Shown here in pieces: positions 1-41,210 of a stretch of DNA of 64,000 nucleotides. Made by a program: the position numbers and the translations under genes. The notes beneath the pieces are model-generated. The model ran no database searches. It was not told where the DNA came from and worked only from the letters and a program-made list of their open reading frames with translations. Origin of the DNA: an uncultured Desulfobacteraceae bacterium. Its GTDB lineage: Bacteria; Desulfobacterota; DSM-4660; Desulfatiglandales; HGW-15. Within the stretch, counting starts at the first letter, position 1. Every line of letters starts with the position of its first letter. The stretch spans positions 31,447-95,446 of the forward strand of contig CAZOLJ010000002.1 in NCBI GenBank assembly GCA_964580575.1. Direction: 5' to 3'.

Positions 1-1
1 C

Positions 2-514
2 ATGGAGGCTCAGATAGGCCCCGGCAGAATCGCCCGCATCGGCAGAGGCGGCGCTTTTCTTGCAAGAATCCTTTCATTAGCCAGCATCAGAGGCATTCTC
101 ACAGGGAGCGTGTTCACGAATTTTGAGGCGAACGGATTACCTTACCAGAGTATAAGCGGACAGGTCACTTTCAACAACGGGAACATGGATCTGACCAATT
201 TTCGATTTGTGAGCTACGCCGTGAACCTAAACGCTCAGGGTCGCATCAACCTCCTTGAAGGGCAAATGGACGTAGGGGCAAGATTGAGGCCTCTCGGCGC
301 GGTGTCAACCGCCATGGGGTTTGTCCCGTTCGTGGGACGGGTTGCAGCAGGCCTTACGGAAATCCACTTCAACCTGAGCGGACCAGTGGACGATCCGCGA
401 GTGTCCCTTACCCCGGGCCAAGGCATAGCGGATTCGATCCAGGATCAGGCAAGAGGGGTGGGCTCGATGTTCAGAGGGGCTGCCGACCTTTTTCGCAGAG
501 ACGAGAACAAATAG
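2..514 (+). CDS. C-terminal part of a large AsmA-like/YhdP-type envelope biogenesis protein (5' end outside window)
   Basis: The ORF is open to the window edge. The C-terminal pattern (...VTFNNGNMDLTNFRFVS..NLNAQGRINLL.GQMDV...HFNLSGPVDDPRVSLTP) resembles AsmA-family C-terminal regions. Confidence 0.5.
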   Translation: MEAQIGPGRIARIGRGGAFLARILSLASIRGILTGSVFTNFEANGLPYQSISGQVTFNNGNMDLTNFRFVSYAVNLNAQGRINLLEGQMDVGARLRPLGAVSTAMGFVPFVGRVAAGLTEIHFNLSGPVDDPRVSLTPGQGIADSIQDQARGVGSMFRGAADLFRRDENK

Positions 515-646
515 ATCAGGAAGTGAGAAGAAGAGGGTGATTGAACGTTGAGCATTGAACAAAGAACATTTAGGCCAAACAACTGGTCTCATTCTGGTGT
601 CGGTGATGAGAGAAAAGTTTGGAGAAGGAAATAGGCTTGGCCTCGC

Positions 647-1081
647 CTAGCCTACCAAAGGATTCCTGACTTTCAACCTCGGAAATCGGCTGAAGTCCCT
701 GTCGCCTGACCACAGTTCGGTCACTCCATGTTGCTGGCACAGTGCAGCGATCCTGGCGTCGTGCACCTGTGGGCCGGACACCCGTCCGGTCTGCAGGATG
801 TTTCGCAGCATCACCCAGTAGTCCTCTAATTCCGAAAGCACAACAAGACTTGGCGATTCCAGCCATGCCTCAACTTGGTCGATGGCCTTTGCGAGAGGGG
901 TCGGAGGAGTGTAGATGCGGGGATGCGTTACGATGGCCAGGAATTCATGAATGCACGGCCACGGAATTGCCCATGGCGCCCGACCTTCAGCCAGCTGAAC
1001 CAGGTGCTCAAATGCAGGTGAGTGCCACGGCGAATCTTCACGGTGCGCATAAACCAAAAGGTTGCTGTCGACAGCGATCAT
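647..1081 (-). CDS. vapC: PIN-domain ribonuclease toxin, VapC family
   Basis: The N-terminus MIAVDSNLLVYA carries the first acidic PIN residue and the C-terminus has DRDFSRF. The 4-nt overlap with the upstream antitoxin ORF is typical TA architecture. It is a paralogue of 13190-13642. Confidence 0.85.
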   Translation of the reverse strand: MIAVDSNLLVYAHREDSPWHSPAFEHLVQLAEGRAPWAIPWPCIHEFLAIVTHPRIYTPPTPLAKAIDQVEAWLESPSLVVLSELEDYWVMLRNILQTGRVSGPQVHDARIAALCQQHGVTELWSGDRDFSRFPRLKVRNPLVG

Positions 1082-1335
1082 CCGCCCCGACCCTCATAGC
1101 TCAGCTCGCGGATCTGTTCCCAGGAAGCGTTGGCAATGTGAGGCTGAATCCCTTTGCCTTTGAACGTCGCCTTCCTGAGCCGGAAGCCGTTACGCCGCTT
1201 GTGCTGAGAAACGATCCGGCGAAGACCCTCTTCGATCAGCGCCTTCAGGGTGGTCTTCTCCCGGTTGGCTACCTTGCGGGCTTCTTCAATAAGACTGTCG
1301 GGTATCTGTACGGTCGTTTTCATATGGGTAACCAT
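1078..1335 (-). CDS. vapB: VapB-type (ribbon-helix-helix-like) antitoxin
   Basis: An 85-aa ORF (TTVQIPDSLIEEARKVA..KTTLKALIEEGLRRIV) overlaps the vapC start. The true start may be the internal MKTTVQ at 1323. Confidence 0.75.
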   Translation of the reverse strand: MVTHMKTTVQIPDSLIEEARKVANREKTTLKALIEEGLRRIVSQHKRRNGFRLRKATFKGKGIQPHIANASWEQIRELSYEGRGG

Positions 1336-1363
1336 ATCATCCCGGTTTCAAATGTCAAGTGCC

Positions 1364-1656
1364 GTAACACTTTAGCTGTTTGAAATTGTCACAGAAAAAG
1401 GCCATAGGGGGTCCCTCCAAAAACAGAAAACGAAGAGGGATCGGGAAAGACTTCGCAGGCAAGGGGCAGCGAAGGCGGGCGGCGAGGGGTCACTGGCACC
1501 TGCCCGGAAGAGTTTACCTGGTGAGTTTCCCGGTAGCCCTCCGCCCGCCTCACCCATGGCCCAAAGCCAGCGACGGTGGTGTGGCTTCTTCGTTGTTCTG
1601 TTTTTAGAGGGACCCCCATGGCCTCAGCCATCCATTTCAAACAGCTAAAGTGTTAC
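1364..1656. mobile_element. MITE-like non-autonomous element (about 70-bp imperfect terminal inverted repeats, GTAA termini, 8-bp TSD caagtgcc)
   Basis: 1364-1386 gtaacactttagctgtttgaaat is the exact reverse complement of 1634-1656. The arms extend imperfectly to about 1436 and about 1587. The identical direct 8-mer caagtgcc sits at 1356-1363 and 1657-1664. No convincing ORF lies inside. Confidence 0.7.
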
Positions 1657-1856
1657 CAAGTGCCTATTTCCTGCCACAATGAGTTGAACAGGAGAAAGGA
1701 AGAACTTCTGGAAGGGTTATGGGGACCGCCTTGCGCGCGGGTATAAGTTACTTATATTGGGCTGTAAGTTGTGAAACGCACGCACGGTTGGACAGCCCAA
1801 AGGGTGTGGGGTTGGGCCTTGGCACAGCGAAAATTAGAGAACAAAGGAGAATAGAA

Positions 1857-2765
1857 ATGAAAAACAAGGTATTTGGCAAAATGATATTATTGGTGGCAGC
1901 CTTTGGGCTTGCCTTTGGGTTCCAATTCTCCAGCATCACCCCCGCTTTTGCGGATAATGCGTCGGATGCTAAGCAGCTCGTGGAAAAGTCGAAGATGACC
2001 TTTGACCGATTTGTAGGGATGAATGAGATGGGGACCTTCCGCGACTTACTGAAGAAAGCGAAAGGCGTTTTTATCTCCCCCCAGGTGCTGGAAGGGGCCT
2101 TTATTTTCGGGTTGTCGGGCGGCAGCGGAGTGCTTGTGGCTCGCGACCCCGGAACAGGGAGCTGGAGCGGGCCTGCTTTCTACACGGTCGGTGAAGCAAG
2201 CTTTGGCTTGCAGGCTGGAGGCAAAGCGTCAGAAGTGATCATGCTCGCCATGACCGAGCGCGGGGTCAACGCGCTTCTCTCTCCCAGCGTGAAGCTGGGA
2301 GCGGACGTGGGAGTGGCGGCAGGGCCTGTGGGAGCAGGGGCCAGCGCAGCTACAGCCAACATCAGCGCGGACATTCTCACGTTCGCCCTTTCAAAGGGAC
2401 TGTACGCCGGCATCTCGTTGGAGGGGGCCGTCGTCGCTGTTCGAAACGAGTGGAACGGGGCTTATTACAGCAAGCCGGGAGTGACCCCGACTGACATTTT
2501 GATTCGCAGGAATGTGAGCAATCCTGGGTCGGCCAAGCTGATTGCGGCTGTTTCAAAAGCTGCAGGTGCCACGAAACAGGCTGAAGAAAAGAAAGCGGCC
2601 CCTCCTGAAGGTGGTGGCAAGTATTATGAGGTCAGGTCCGGGGATTCTTTGTACGAGATTGCAAAGAAACACGGCACTACAGTGGATGAGCTTGTTAAAC
2701 TCAACAACCTCAAGGACAAGAACCATATTCACCCGGGCCAGAAACTTCTTCTTCCCGGAAAATAG
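1857..2765 (+). CDS. Secreted SYLF (Ysc84/DUF500) lipid-binding domain protein with C-terminal LysM domain
   Basis: The RBS aaaggaga precedes the ATG at 1857. There is a signal peptide (MKNKVFGKMILLVAAFGLAFG), a SYLF core (GAFIFGLSGGSGVLVARD...FYTVGEASFGLQAGG...GADVGVAAGPVG) and a C-terminal LysM (YYEVRSGDSLYEIAKKHGTTVDELVKLNNL). Confidence 0.8.
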   Translation: MKNKVFGKMILLVAAFGLAFGFQFSSITPAFADNASDAKQLVEKSKMTFDRFVGMNEMGTFRDLLKKAKGVFISPQVLEGAFIFGLSGGSGVLVARDPGTGSWSGPAFYTVGEASFGLQAGGKASEVIMLAMTERGVNALLSPSVKLGADVGVAAGPVGAGASAATANISADILTFALSKGLYAGISLEGAVVAVRNEWNGAYYSKPGVTPTDILIRRNVSNPGSAKLIAAVSKAAGATKQAEEKKAAPPEGGGKYYEVRSGDSLYEIAKKHGTTVDELVKLNNLKDKNHIHPGQKLLLPGK

Positions 2766-2882
2766 CAGGTAGACTCTGAGCAACTCCCGACTTCCCCTCC
2801 CTTAAAGCCCGTCCTCCGTTGCACAGCTACTGCGGAGGATGGAGGAGGGGTATGGGGGAGGGAGTTGATAGGAGGATCTAGC

Positions 2883-4546: not shown

Positions 4547-4924
4547 GGTGAGCTCCGTTTGAGGTGAAGTGAGGGGATCAGGGCTGCCCTTTGGTAAGTG
4601 CAAGTCTAGAGAATCCAGCCTTTGCGTGTCAACCCCTAACCGATCAGGCTTAAAACCTCTTCATTTGAAAAGGGGACGGTGCATGATCCACCCGGAACAT
4701 CTGGATCACTATTCCGAAGAAGGCCATGATTCTCGGCATGTCAAAATATCACTTCAAATCTGCTCGTGAATCAAGCCACCAGCACTTTTCGGTAAAGTGG
4801 CATTCAGGAGACCGAGTCGGGACGGCCTTTTCTTCGTAAGATAGAATCAGGCGGTTAAGCGCATAGAATTGACTTGCAGGTCTTTTTGACATAAAAACTC
4901 CTGCATAAGAGTGGGGGATAAGCA

Positions 4925-5600: not shown

Positions 5601-5750
5601 TGCAGGCCTTTGGCCTCACCCAGAGAGTGCCAGAGCCCCGAATAGAGTGGCATGGTAGGGTCCAGCCTACGCGTTGAGCTGAACTGCAAGGATGCTGAGG
5701 AATGACCATTATCTAATACAAACGCAATAAGTCCTTTGCCGCTGAACGGC

Positions 5751-5910
5751 ACCCCCTCCCCCTCTCCCCCAGCTTGGGGGAGAGGTTTACCCGCCTCTGG
5801 CGGGTGACCTCCCCCATCAAGGGGAAGGAGATATTTCTACAGTTTTGGCAAACTGGTAATGAAGTGCCCCCTTTGAGGGGGCAACCTGAGGCCACCCGCT
5901 CCGAGGGTGG
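5751..5910. repeat. Array of four C-tract/G-tract hairpin modules (dispersed GC-rich repeat family, copy A)
   Basis: The hairpins are cctctccccca-gc-tgggggagagg (5761-5785), cccgcc-tct-ggcggg (5790-5804), tgccccc-tttga-gggggca (5865-5883) and ccaccc-N7-gggtgg (5892-5910). The 20-mer at 5805-5824 recurs inverted at 41178-41197, and the 15-mer at 5790-5804 recurs at 49603-49617. Confidence 0.7.
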
Positions 5911-11444: not shown

Positions 11445-11557
11445 AAATTCGAAGCACGAAGCTCGAACTTAATGCAAACGTATTCAATTCGTTGCCATTC
11501 TGCCCCCTCACCCCGCCCTCTCCCCCAAGTTGGGGGAGAGGGGAAGGGTGAGGGGGC
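11445..11557. repeat. Composite intergenic repeat: CGAA-heptad module (11445-11468) plus a 56-nt GC-rich hairpin (11502-11557, copy B)
   Basis: The heptad module reads aaattcgaagcacgaagctcgaac. The sequence gccccctcaccccgccctctcccccaa-g-ttgggggagaggggaagggtgagggggc folds on itself with 2-3 mismatches. Confidence 0.7.
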
Positions 11558-16260: not shown

Positions 16261-16370
16261 CCCCCTTAGACGGGGGGAGGGCGAGGGTGGGGGTGGAAAA
16301 GGGAACAACATTTCTAAGCTTTTTCATTTCCCCCTCCCCTTTATCCCCTCCGCAAGGGGAGGGGAGCCTT
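16261..16370. repeat. GC-rich C-tract/G-tract hairpin repeat (copy C)
   Basis: It contains ccccc-ttagac-ggggg, G-rich ggagggcgagggtgggggtgg facing C-rich ccccctcccctttatcccctcc, and cccctcc-gcaagg-ggagggg. Confidence 0.6.
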
Positions 16371-17431: not shown

Positions 17432-17582
17432 GAAATTCGAAATCCGAAGCACGAAACCCGAAACAACACTCAATGATCAGAATTCAAATGACCAAAAGCA
17501 AGGCCCTGGACTTCTGTTTTGAACATTGAAGTATTTGAACTTTGAGTTTGTTTCGAGTTTCGGATTTCGTGCTTCGAATTTG
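17432..17582. repeat. About 150-bp inverted repeat built from NNNCGAA heptads (largest copy of the family)
   Basis: The left arm is aaattcgaaatccgaagcacgaaacccgaaacaa and the right arm is ttgtttcgagtttcggatttcgtgcttcgaattt. The central part contains ttcaaatgaccaaaag / ttttgaacattgaag. It fills the whole gnd-pgl spacer. Confidence 0.75.
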
Positions 17583-30607: not shown

Positions 30608-32470
30608 GTGCTGGATAGAAAGATCGCCCATGTGAATCTGAGCGATGGCTCCTATGAGATCAAGAAGATCCCGATGGAGTGGAGGAGAAAGTTCCTGGGC
30701 GGAAGGGGAATCAACATGCATCTCCTTTCGAAATCCTACCCATCGATCCCTGACCCTTTTTCACCGCAGAACCCTCTCCTTTTCGGAGCCGGCCTCCTCA
30801 CCGGGATTCCGGGGTTCGGGTCAAGAATGAACATCACCTCCCGGTCCCCTGAGTCAGGCCACCTCGGGGATTCCAACATGGGCGGTGAGTTTGGTGCGGA
30901 GATGGTCAAGGCAGGGCTGAGCCACCTCCTGATCACGGGGAAAAGCAAAAAGCCCGTGTACCTCTTCATCAGGGACGGGAGGATCGATTTCTGCGACGCC
31001 CGCAAGCTCAAGGGGCTCGACACGATAGAGACGCAAAAGCGGATTCGTGCTCAAAGGAGGGATCCCAAGGTGCAGGTGGCCTGCATCGGATTGGCAGGCG
31101 AGAACCTGGTCCGTTTCTCCGCCATCCGCTCCGGCATGAAGAGCGCTGCAGGCCGAACCGGGATGGGCGCGGTCATGGGGTCAAAGAATCTCAAGGCCGT
31201 GGCCGTGCGGGGGAACCTGGACATCGGAATCTCGGAGCCGGAGGCCTATCGCAAGTATTATCTCAAGACCCTGGCCGAACTCATGAAAACCAAGTGGATC
31301 CAGGCCTTGGGGAAGCAGGGGACTCCCGTGCTCTTCCGTTACTCCAATGCTCTGGGTTTCCTGAGCGTGCGCAACAACCAGGAGGTGACCATCGGCGACC
31401 AGGGGCCTCTTTTGGAAGCCGAAGCGCTCGAGCCCTACTCCACCGGCATGATGGCGTGCTTCGGATGTCCTGTTCACTGTCGCCACCGGTTCTCCATGGA
31501 AGAGGGAAAGCATCCGGGAACGAGAGGGGAGGGACCTGAGTACGCCTCCATCGGTTCTCTGGGTACAAAGCTGGGCCATCTGGATCTTGAAAACATCATC
31601 TATGCGACGCAACTCTGCAACCTCCATGGACTGGATACCATTTCCACCGGCTCCTACGTGGCCTGGGCCATGGAGCTGTATCAGCGGGGCATCATCGACA
31701 AGAGAACGACGAAAATTCCTTTGAAGTGGGGGGACGGGGAGATCATCGTCGAACTTCTCGACCAGATCGCTCAGCGGAGAGGCTTCGGAGATATCCTGGC
31801 GGAAGGCTCTTTTGCGCGAGAAATCCTTGGGGATGCCTCCCACCCCTATCTTCTGGAAGTCAAAGACTTCCCCATTGAAATGACGGATGAGAGGCTTCCC
31901 AAAAGCTTCGCTCTGGGCATGGCCACTTCCACAAGAGGGGCTTGTCACATGAGAAGCCGTCCCTCGATTGACGCCGTGGGCCTGCCGGAATCGGTTCTGG
32001 AGAAAATGTACGGCGGCCCTGTGAGCGAGCGCCTTTCTTCCTACTTGGGCAAGGCGAGAATGGTCTGGTGGCATGAACTCATGAACGCCGTGTCCGACTC
32101 TCTCGGGATCTGCCGTTTTCAAAGCGTGTTTTCGAGCCCTCACGGATTGGGCTACCCCCATTTCTCACGTCTCATCGATCTCGCGGCAGGCCTTCACCTC
32201 ACTCCCGCGGGGATCAAGAGAACAGGCGAACGGATCTACACACTGGAAAGGCTCATGCTCGCAGGGGAAGGAATTTCCAGGAGCGAAGACACCCTTCCCA
32301 AGAGGTATTTTGAAGAGCCCATTCCCGAGGGGCCTTCCAAAGGGGAAGTGGTGTGCAGAGAGGAGTTCAGCAGGATGCTCGACGAGTACTACAGGCTCCA
32401 CGGTTGGGATGAAGAGGGCATCCCGTCCAAAAGGACGCTCAAGAGACTGGGGCTTTCCAATGAGAATTGA
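30608..32470 (+). CDS. aor: Aldehyde:ferredoxin oxidoreductase family (tungstopterin) enzyme
   Basis: The protein is 620 aa. The N-terminal AFOR_N pattern is (..L.VNLS.G......IP.E....FLGGRG.N..LL). The cluster and pterin region includes C.GC.V.C. The start is GTG. Confidence 0.9.
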   Translation: MLDRKIAHVNLSDGSYEIKKIPMEWRRKFLGGRGINMHLLSKSYPSIPDPFSPQNPLLFGAGLLTGIPGFGSRMNITSRSPESGHLGDSNMGGEFGAEMVKAGLSHLLITGKSKKPVYLFIRDGRIDFCDARKLKGLDTIETQKRIRAQRRDPKVQVACIGLAGENLVRFSAIRSGMKSAAGRTGMGAVMGSKNLKAVAVRGNLDIGISEPEAYRKYYLKTLAELMKTKWIQALGKQGTPVLFRYSNALGFLSVRNNQEVTIGDQGPLLEAEALEPYSTGMMACFGCPVHCRHRFSMEEGKHPGTRGEGPEYASIGSLGTKLGHLDLENIIYATQLCNLHGLDTISTGSYVAWAMELYQRGIIDKRTTKIPLKWGDGEIIVELLDQIAQRRGFGDILAEGSFAREILGDASHPYLLEVKDFPIEMTDERLPKSFALGMATSTRGACHMRSRPSIDAVGLPESVLEKMYGGPVSERLSSYLGKARMVWWHELMNAVSDSLGICRFQSVFSSPHGLGYPHFSRLIDLAAGLHLTPAGIKRTGERIYTLERLMLAGEGISRSEDTLPKRYFEEPIPEGPSKGEVVCREEFSRMLDEYYRLHGWDEEGIPSKRTLKRLGLSNEN

Positions 32471-41114: not shown

Positions 41115-41210
41115 CCCCCCTCCCCTTGCCCCTCCCGCCAAGGGAGGGGAATGGCTTAGAACGCCAAGGATGCCCTCCCCCTTGATGGGGGAGGTCAGGT
41201 GGGGGTGATA
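41115..41210. repeat. GC-rich C-tract/G-tract hairpin repeat (copy D, inverted relative to copy A)
   Basis: It contains cccctccc-gccaa-gggagggg (41129-41149) and cctccccc-ttgat-gggggagg (41174-41194). The stretch 41178-41197 is the exact reverse complement of 5805-5824. Confidence 0.7.

Follow-up and report, generated by a model that had tools for sequence, protein, structure and literature searches.

A miniature inverted-repeat transposable element with ISBst12-type ends in an uncultured Desulfobacteraceae bacterium

We analysed a 64-kb stretch of DNA from an uncultured Desulfobacteraceae bacterium (64,000 nucleotides, positions 31,447 to 95,446 of contig CAZOLJ010000002.1 in assembly GCA_964580575.1; hereafter the window). 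The 293-bp sequence at window 1364-1656, located between a vapBC toxin-antitoxin module and a SYLF/LysM gene, is almost beyond doubt a transposable element of the miniature inverted-repeat type (MITE). It is mobile, and the explanation that we strongly favour is that of a non-autonomous MITE, probably mobilised by an enzyme of the ISBst12 group of the IS66 family.

Boundaries, empty sites and family of the element

The terminal inverted repeats (TIRs) of the MITE are perfect over 23 nucleotides, as 1364-1386 matches the reverse complement of 1634-1656 at 23 of 23 positions. Each TIR abuts a copy of the direct 8-mer CAAGTGCC, on the left at 1356-1363 and on the right at 1657-1664. A first-pass annotation had read these repeats and the flanking 8-mers from the letters of the window, and both readings were borne out; the 8-mers do not belong to any longer repeat that is conserved. 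The TIR 23-mer had no other match in the window at up to 3 mismatches (0 expected by chance). A profile built from 40 family members matched 1364-1656 from end to end (E = 1e-96), and this was the sole copy in the window.

An empty site was found in a relative, as the proposed transposition predicts. The sequence L224 represents the same locus with a single CAAGTGCC and no element. Window 1-1363 aligned with L224 322-1684 (93.8% identity) and window 1657-2784 with L224 1677-2810 (91.4% identity), and the two alignments overlap on the one CAAGTGCC with nothing between them. L224 was traced via a 95%-identical SYLF-LysM homologue, and its neighbouring genes are the same vapBC and asmA-like genes. 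A precise deletion artefact in L224 was excluded, and the 8-mers do differ between copies of the element. A second pair of filled and empty sites was identified in L187, where the element at 4613-4904 has TATTCTTC on both sides, and in L194, which carries a single, uninterrupted TATTCTTC; their flanks are 92% identical without gaps. A VapB protein look-up retrieved four independent assemblies of the same strain that carry the element, two of which reach past the window and contain a second copy, and exact look-ups of the VapB, VapC and LysM proteins returned this strain only, always with the element present. The perfect TIRs and duplication, together with an about 91-94% identical relative lacking the element, mark the insertion as recent.

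A second copy in the same genome, 82% identical, lies at L002 18787-19078, outside the window by about 7.5-9 kb beyond its left end, and has its own 8-bp duplication (CATCCGGC/CATCCAGC). Counted with its duplications (L002 18779-19086), this copy lies precisely where tctB and tctA meet in a tctCBA transporter operon. There tctB now ends in ...AGW*, using the TAA within the GTAAC terminus of the element, whereas in the reconstructed empty site it ends in ...AG* with its own TGA. The insertion thus added one codon, placed 300 bp between these neighbours in the operon and truncated neither. An apparent empty site in L002 for the copy in L138 was rejected, since it belongs to a different hairpin repeat family in which the L138 MITE is nested, and it counts as no more than a 'related empty site'. 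This third family consists of hairpins of GACAAAGG/GCACAAAG units and was seen at L002 17040-17180 (outside the window) and in L131, L050, L186, L157 and L138, the MITE of L138 lying in the loop of such a hairpin. In one assembly, contigs L004 and L207 end about 30 nt into the element from either side, which is expected of a repeat.

The family was surveyed in a genome collection with one genome per species (pattern GNAACANTNTAGCTNTTTGAAAT) and in metagenomes (exact window 23-mer). The genome collection yielded at least 111 stretches in at least 27 metagenome-assembled genomes (MAGs), and among the matches listed nearly all were MAGs of Desulfatiglandales, Desulfobacteraceae or 'Deltaproteobacteria'. 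The exact 23-mer was present in 89 JGI/ENA contigs from wetlands and sediments. No TIR match was found in viral contigs, and no blastn match among PLSDB plasmids. More than 200 element ends share the 23-mer and vary only at positions 2, 7, 9 and 15. Computational pairing of ends gave 103 elements of 50-600 bp among the matches listed. Perfect 8-bp duplications flank 53 of these pairs and duplications with 7 of 8 matches another 25, at 67 distinct sites; by our calculation, a match of at least 7/8 would arise by chance in about 4e-4 of pairs. Copies such as the first-pass annotation had anticipated, whose flanks differ and which have 8-bp duplications of their own, were found in L002 and, as paired ends, in both MAGs and metagenomes. 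The copies lie in varied contexts and in either orientation.

The common 23-nt terminus is found on several element types whose interiors are unrelated to each other. Their sizes cluster at 292 bp (the type of the window copy, which has one additional base after 1405) and at 237, 298, 301, 328 and 340 bp. Derivatives shortened by deletion, of 67-125 bp, are also present. The 67-bp derivatives, which keep about 33 bp of each end, have perfect duplications at at least five different sites and are still mobile; this deletion series suggests that mobilisation requires no more than about 33 bp per end. The metagenome contigs L121, L143, L159, L170, L193 and L204 have perfect TIRs with unrelated flanking 8-mers. 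Single flanks recur among contigs (TATTTTTT in L193, L195 and L159; GCGAACTC in L156 and L193), so these copies are probably products of chimeric assembly across the repeat, or else of recombination between copies.

The duplicated 8-mers are 69% A+T against a background of 49% and are A+T-rich in the middle, with a loose target consensus S-A-W-W-W-T-T-S, of which CAAGTGCC in the window is atypical. Only 20% of the insertion sites lie in long open reading frames (ORFs), compared with 71% of random positions. The family is large, apparently undescribed, and carried by relatives of sediment sulfate reducers. Classical bacterial MITEs include Correia of Neisseria, RUP of Streptococcus, ERIC/IRU of enterobacteria and Chunjie of Geobacter. 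The elements described here resemble them in being small, non-coding, multi-copy and mostly intergenic, in having TIRs, target duplications and deletion derivatives, in their capacity to form hairpins, and in inserting at operon junctions while sparing the genes, as at tctB/tctA. They differ in their termini, host clade and duplication length (the duplication is TA for Correia and RUP, and Chunjie is associated with a different insertion sequence (IS) family), and in uniting several types with unrelated interiors under one 23-nt terminus.

It could be argued that the sequence at 1364-1656 is a local palindrome that arose once, for example as a regulatory hairpin or an artefact of replication or assembly, that its flanking 8-mer is due to chance and that it is not mobile. 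The presence of just one copy in the 64-kb window would agree with this. However, hundreds of copies elsewhere have their own 8-bp duplications, the empty sites are exact, and the same sequence occurs in four independent assemblies, which leaves this explanation with practically no probability.

The candidate transposase

As no transposase gene was found near any end, the assignment of a mobilising enzyme rests on the ends themselves. From their shape and from the duplication length we infer that the mobiliser is probably a single-ORF IS66-family transposase of the ISBst12 group. The MITE terminus GTAACAGTTTAGC fits the inverted repeat (IR) consensus of this group, GTAACTAYTCAGC. GTAAC stands at both ends of the window copy and of nearly all family members. 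The ISBst12-group element ISDge4 has the TIRs GTAACTGCTCAGCA and GTGACTACTCAGCA and an 8-bp direct repeat (PMC12898284). An ISBst12-type IS on the Geobacillus plasmid pHTA426 has the end GTAACTATTCAGCCC and the duplication AACTCGTC. We further read the ends of four environmental and seven IMG/VR ISBst12-like elements, which are GTAACTGCTCAGCCTGAAAT, GTAACTATTCAGC, GTAACTACTTAGCT or GTTACTGCTCAGGC. All these ends start with GT(A/T)AC and share ..yTyAG(C). The MITE terminus, written in short as GTAACAGTTTAGCT, GTAACANTTTAGCT... or GTAACANTTTAGCTNTTTGAAAT (looser pattern, GTAACNNTTTAGC), matches each of about ten ISBst12-group IRs at 10 of 13-14 anchored positions when GTAACAGTTTAGCT is compared, and one of the ISBst12-like ends (GTAACTGCTCAGCCTGAAAT) also has the TGAAAT that follows in the MITE.

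The duplication length agrees with these ends. Wherever both flanks of an ISBst12-group IS could be read, a perfect 8-bp duplication was present, which is the case for eight elements read here in addition to a ninth that is published. Overall, the MITE shares with ISBst12-group ISs (ISBst12, ISDge4, the ISGka-type element on pHTA426 and the environmental elements) the GTAAC start, the pattern GTAAC-n-n-y-T-y-AGC and the 8-bp duplication, the duplicated 8-mers often being A+T-rich. Unlike the MITE, which has 293 bp and no transposase, these ISs have 1.6-1.75 kb and encode a DDE_Tnp_IS66 transposase of 450-505 amino acids; the MITE terminus differs from theirs at positions 6, 7 and 10. In L248 and L249, the left end of an environmental ISBst12-like IS is tandemly duplicated upstream of the transposase gene (GTTACTGCTCAGGCACACCAGGAAGTTAATCATTCCCTGGTG twice).

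Canonical IS66 elements make an 8-bp duplication as well. The MITE terminus matches the canonical IS66 IR, GTAAGCGTCCGGCG or GTAAGCGTCCGG... (GTAAGCG...; PMC12888890), at 8 of 14 anchored positions, a poorer fit than to the ISBst12 group. Compared with three-ORF elements such as ISPsko1/ISPa75 (IR GTAAGCGTCCGGCGAACTCACCTT; PMC12888890), the MITE has the same GTAA start, whereas the IS66 IR continues with GCG and the MITE with CAG. These ISs also carry the accessory genes tnpA and tnpB, and no TnpB-like sequence was found in the element-bearing loci. The first-pass annotation had described the element as apparently IS66-derived. Its ends and 8-bp duplication fit this family and refine the assignment to the ISBst12 group, so that the description is well supported; no evidence of an IS origin was found for the interior.

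Several observations weigh against an ISBst12-group mobiliser. The autonomous IS66-family element with matching IRs that the first-pass annotation proposed to look for was not found in the 1.3 Mb of element-bearing loci; it should be noted that short-read MAGs often lose ISs. In these loci, tblastn searches gave no hit with an IS66 TnpB query, with the pHTA426 transposase or with 120 ISBst12-like transposases, and regular expressions for IS66 TnpC motifs gave none. The ORFs up to 4 kb inward of each unpaired end are housekeeping genes only, and the C-termini of ISBst12-like transposases gave no pointer to a candidate partner. A 4.6-kb pair of ends in L053 was considered as an IS and rejected; it encloses glycosyltransferase and oxidoreductase genes and thus represents two separate small elements. 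In addition, four environmental ISBst12-like ISs (P0067, P0027, P0113 and P0092) lack the MITE 23-mer, their ends being related but different. The match to ISBst12 IRs is 10/14 rather than identity, and the conserved MITE terminus spans 23 nt compared with about 14-18 nt for the IRs of the group.

These observations leave room for another transposase family that makes 8-bp duplications (ISL3, IS256, IS1595 or IS6) or for an undescribed one, with the GTAAC likeness being convergent. The lack of an IS66-family gene near any of about 200 ends would be consistent with such an enzyme, as would a terminus that is longer than real ISBst12-group IRs and just ~70-75% identical to them. The inner TIR part AGCTCTTTGAAAT is also, we presume, loosely like ISL3-type ends. 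However, the duplications set the boundary exactly at GTAAC and not at this ISL3-like inner motif. To our knowledge, no family other than IS66 has both GTAA ends and an 8-bp duplication, and the match at 10 of 13-14 anchored positions to about ten independent ISBst12-group IRs has a chance of ~1e-4 per comparison. We therefore regard a different family as unlikely.

The 23-bp termini, and probably also the subterminal blocks described below, would be bound and cleaved by a DDE transposase supplied from elsewhere, most likely a single-ORF enzyme of the ISBst12 group. Integration would proceed via target cuts staggered by 8 bp, whose repair would duplicate the 8-mer, here CAAGTGCC, and the window copy would have inserted in this way into the intergenic region that separates the divergent vapBC and SYLF/LysM genes.

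Hairpin structure, coding status and conservation

Almost the entire element can fold into one hairpin (dG -161 kcal/mol, z ~ -9.7 on either strand). From the left end, the plus strand comprises the left TIR GTAACACTTTAGCTGTTTGAAAT (1364-1386), a presumed transposase binding and cleavage site; a spacer, the 'A' module TGTCACAGAAAAA (1387-1399); the left subterminal inverted block GGCCATAGGGGGTCCCTCCAAAAACAGAAAACGAAGAG (1400-1437); and the left half of a GC-rich inner repeat, AGGCGGGCGG (1473-1482). The right half of the inner repeat, CCGCCCGCCT (1541-1550), is followed by the right subterminal block (1585-1623), the right spacer or 'B' module (reverse complement GGATGGCTGA, 1624-1633) and the right TIR (1634-1656, minus strand). 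The two spacers, of 10-13 nt, are not complementary to each other. Beyond them the arms resume, 1400-1437 pairing with 1585-1623 (repeat I2) with 95% complementarity in the core of the arms (1407-1428 and 1596-1617), and the inner repeat within the hairpin is 100% complementary (repeat I5). The imperfect continuation of the arms had thus been read correctly in the first-pass annotation; its limit of about 70 bp was too short, as complementarity goes on through almost the whole element.

The element encodes nothing. ORFs are not absent as such, with one of 83 codons at 1389-1640 on the minus strand and one interior frame that, in most copies of the 292-bp type, stays open for 96 of 97 codons, so the earlier statement that no credible ORF lies inside holds as to coding and not as to the presence of ORFs. 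In 40 aligned copies, variable columns were distributed over the codon positions as 42/50/48, showing no codon-position bias. The internal ORFs had no Pfam match, neither strand of window 1000-2000 had an Rfam 15 match at E <= 1, and no transposase remnant was detected inside any family member when 120 ISBst12-like transposases were compared with the element-bearing loci. We also considered an in-frame translated insertion like that of Rickettsia palindromic elements. Both are palindromic repeats with one interior frame open, and in several subfamilies the element and its duplication together have a length divisible by 3 (292+8, 298+8, 301+8 and 328+8). In contrast to Rickettsia palindromic elements, the MITE has a TIR with stop codons in all three frames, so host ORFs are not read through, and its insertions avoid ORFs. 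As read-through was found in just 3 of 97 copies, an in-frame role was rejected.

Conservation and co-variation were assessed in an alignment of forty full-length copies (A2), on which the spacer and inner-repeat assignments above are also based. Pairwise identity is 98% in the inner GGCGGGCGG/CCGCCCGCC repeat (40 copies), 90% in the subterminal blocks and 89% in the TIRs, compared with ~75% in the asymmetric regions between blocks and core, 63% in the centre and 51-56% in the spacers beside the TIRs, which are the least conserved. Paired cells make up 97% of the consensus structure. Compensatory changes occur in 18 pairs and 106 cells, against 30 in shuffled alignments, and 0 of 500 shuffles reach 106; slid controls collapse. 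These counts of co-variation are inflated, because copies within a few subfamilies share ancestry. The left subterminal block accounts for 12 pairs with compensatory changes. At TIR position 7, 19 copies have C:G, 11 G:C, 6 T:A and 2 A:T, and none has a change on one side only; at position 15, 20 have G:C, 10 T:A and 9 C:G. The co-varying columns are strictly Watson-Crick with few G:U states, which fits two identical DNA ends better than RNA pairing. The co-variation may reflect subfamily-specific transposase variants, or conversion from arm to arm in a hairpin or cruciform. In some subfamilies the A and B spacer modules are swapped relative to the core, as inversion of the core by recombination between the arms would produce.

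Two of these features are not predicted for a plain parasitic MITE and speak against it: the core is conserved beyond the apparent need for mobility, given that the 67-bp derivatives are mobile without it, and the arms co-vary even where all four bases occur. The mobile element may have been co-opted in addition as a functional hairpin, either as a structured RNA, which would be processed or affect neighbouring transcripts, or as a protein-bound DNA cruciform. Correia and ERIC elements have been reported as processed RNA or as acting on neighbouring transcripts. Such a role would explain both the invariant GC core, dispensable for transposition and standing with the subterminal blocks well above the spacers and centre (51-63%), and the strict co-variation of nearly fully paired arms. 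However, the near absence of G:U pairs points to the identity of two DNA ends, and the excess of compensatory cells is inflated by common descent in few subfamilies. There is no matching Rfam family, no terminator-like site was found in the scanned region (window 1050-1950), the copies lie in either orientation and in varied contexts, and conservation may stem from selection on master copies for transposition efficiency. Co-option therefore appears very improbable. Only a little less improbable is a reading in which the 23-nt terminus marks an 'orphan' MITE superfamily of uncultivated Desulfobacterota, whose conserved asymmetric core, invariant GGCGGGCGG hairpin and strict co-variation are kept for reasons other than transposase recognition. 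The cause may then be a host-exapted structured RNA or DNA element, or concerted evolution of the arms by conversion in a hairpin or cruciform intermediate, and the mobiliser would be a diverged or non-IS-linked transposase rather than a resident ISBst12-type IS. A non-autonomous MITE served by an ISBst12-group enzyme remains the reading that we prefer.

Neighbouring genes, other repeats and implications

The position between a vapBC module and the SYLF/LysM gene, given in the first-pass annotation, was confirmed by Pfam matches. On the minus strand, vapB occupies 1078-1323 (PF09957; called as 81 amino acids in L224) and vapC, encoding a PIN-domain protein, 647-1081 (PF01850). The Ysc84/SYLF-LysM lipoprotein gene lies on the plus strand at 1857-2765 (PF04366 and PF01476), 200 bp to the right of the element. 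The only sigma-70-like match in window 1050-1950 is a predicted vapBC promoter on the minus strand at 1331-1358 (TTGACA-16 nt-TATGGT; 10 of 12 matches plus TG), and the same promoter sequence is found in L224. The TTG of its -35 box falls inside the left duplication copy, so the element stands immediately upstream of an intact vapBC core promoter. Both flanking genes and the core promoter are intact, and we infer that the insertion is neutral for expression of the neighbouring genes. The predicted -10 box (1336-1331, minus strand) overlaps an upstream ATG at 1335; the start of vapB is thus probably the ATG at 1323, as called in L224, and the vapBC mRNA would be leaderless or nearly so. The vapBC module is strain-variable. 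Where the window has 562-1728, the relatives L223 and L225 (88-90% identical) have neither vapBC nor the MITE, and the asmA-like gene is followed directly by the SYLF/LysM gene.

Other repeats were observed in the window. A small palindromic element at 17437-17581 has 25-nt arms (AAATCCGAAGCACGAAACCCGAAAC and its reverse complement, 92% identical) that are 92 nt apart; with a third copy of the AAATCCGAAGCACGAAACCCGAAAC arm at 11445-11467, it may represent a second MITE-like family. GC-rich, intergenic hairpin repeats of the form CCCTCTCCCCCA-GTTGGGGGAGAGGG, which look REP-like, are located at 5714-5785, 11470-11548, 16330-16363, 41115-41148 and 5805-5828 / 41174-41197. Two of these hairpins lie within a 72-nt direct repeat that is 71% identical.

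By all the defining features examined here the MITE is a textbook case; it is an ordinary kind of genomic parasite and does not change the view of transposons. The copy at the vapBC promoter and the copy at the tctB stop codon illustrate how elements of this kind come to lie at the borders of genes without destroying them. Desulfobacterota MAGs from sediments and wetlands harbour the family in abundance; it breaks short-read assemblies and makes chimeric joins, and gene callers may take its open frame of 83-96 codons for a gene. The co-variation of the arms and the over-conserved core are the sole features likely to detain a specialist. A MITE family with ISBst12-type ends is unusual, and a literature search found no report of an IS66- or ISBst12-linked MITE. 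Given a possible link between MITEs and the ISBst12 group, the suggested sufficiency of about 33 bp per end is open to direct test and would give access to the mechanism of an IS family that is poorly characterised in this respect.

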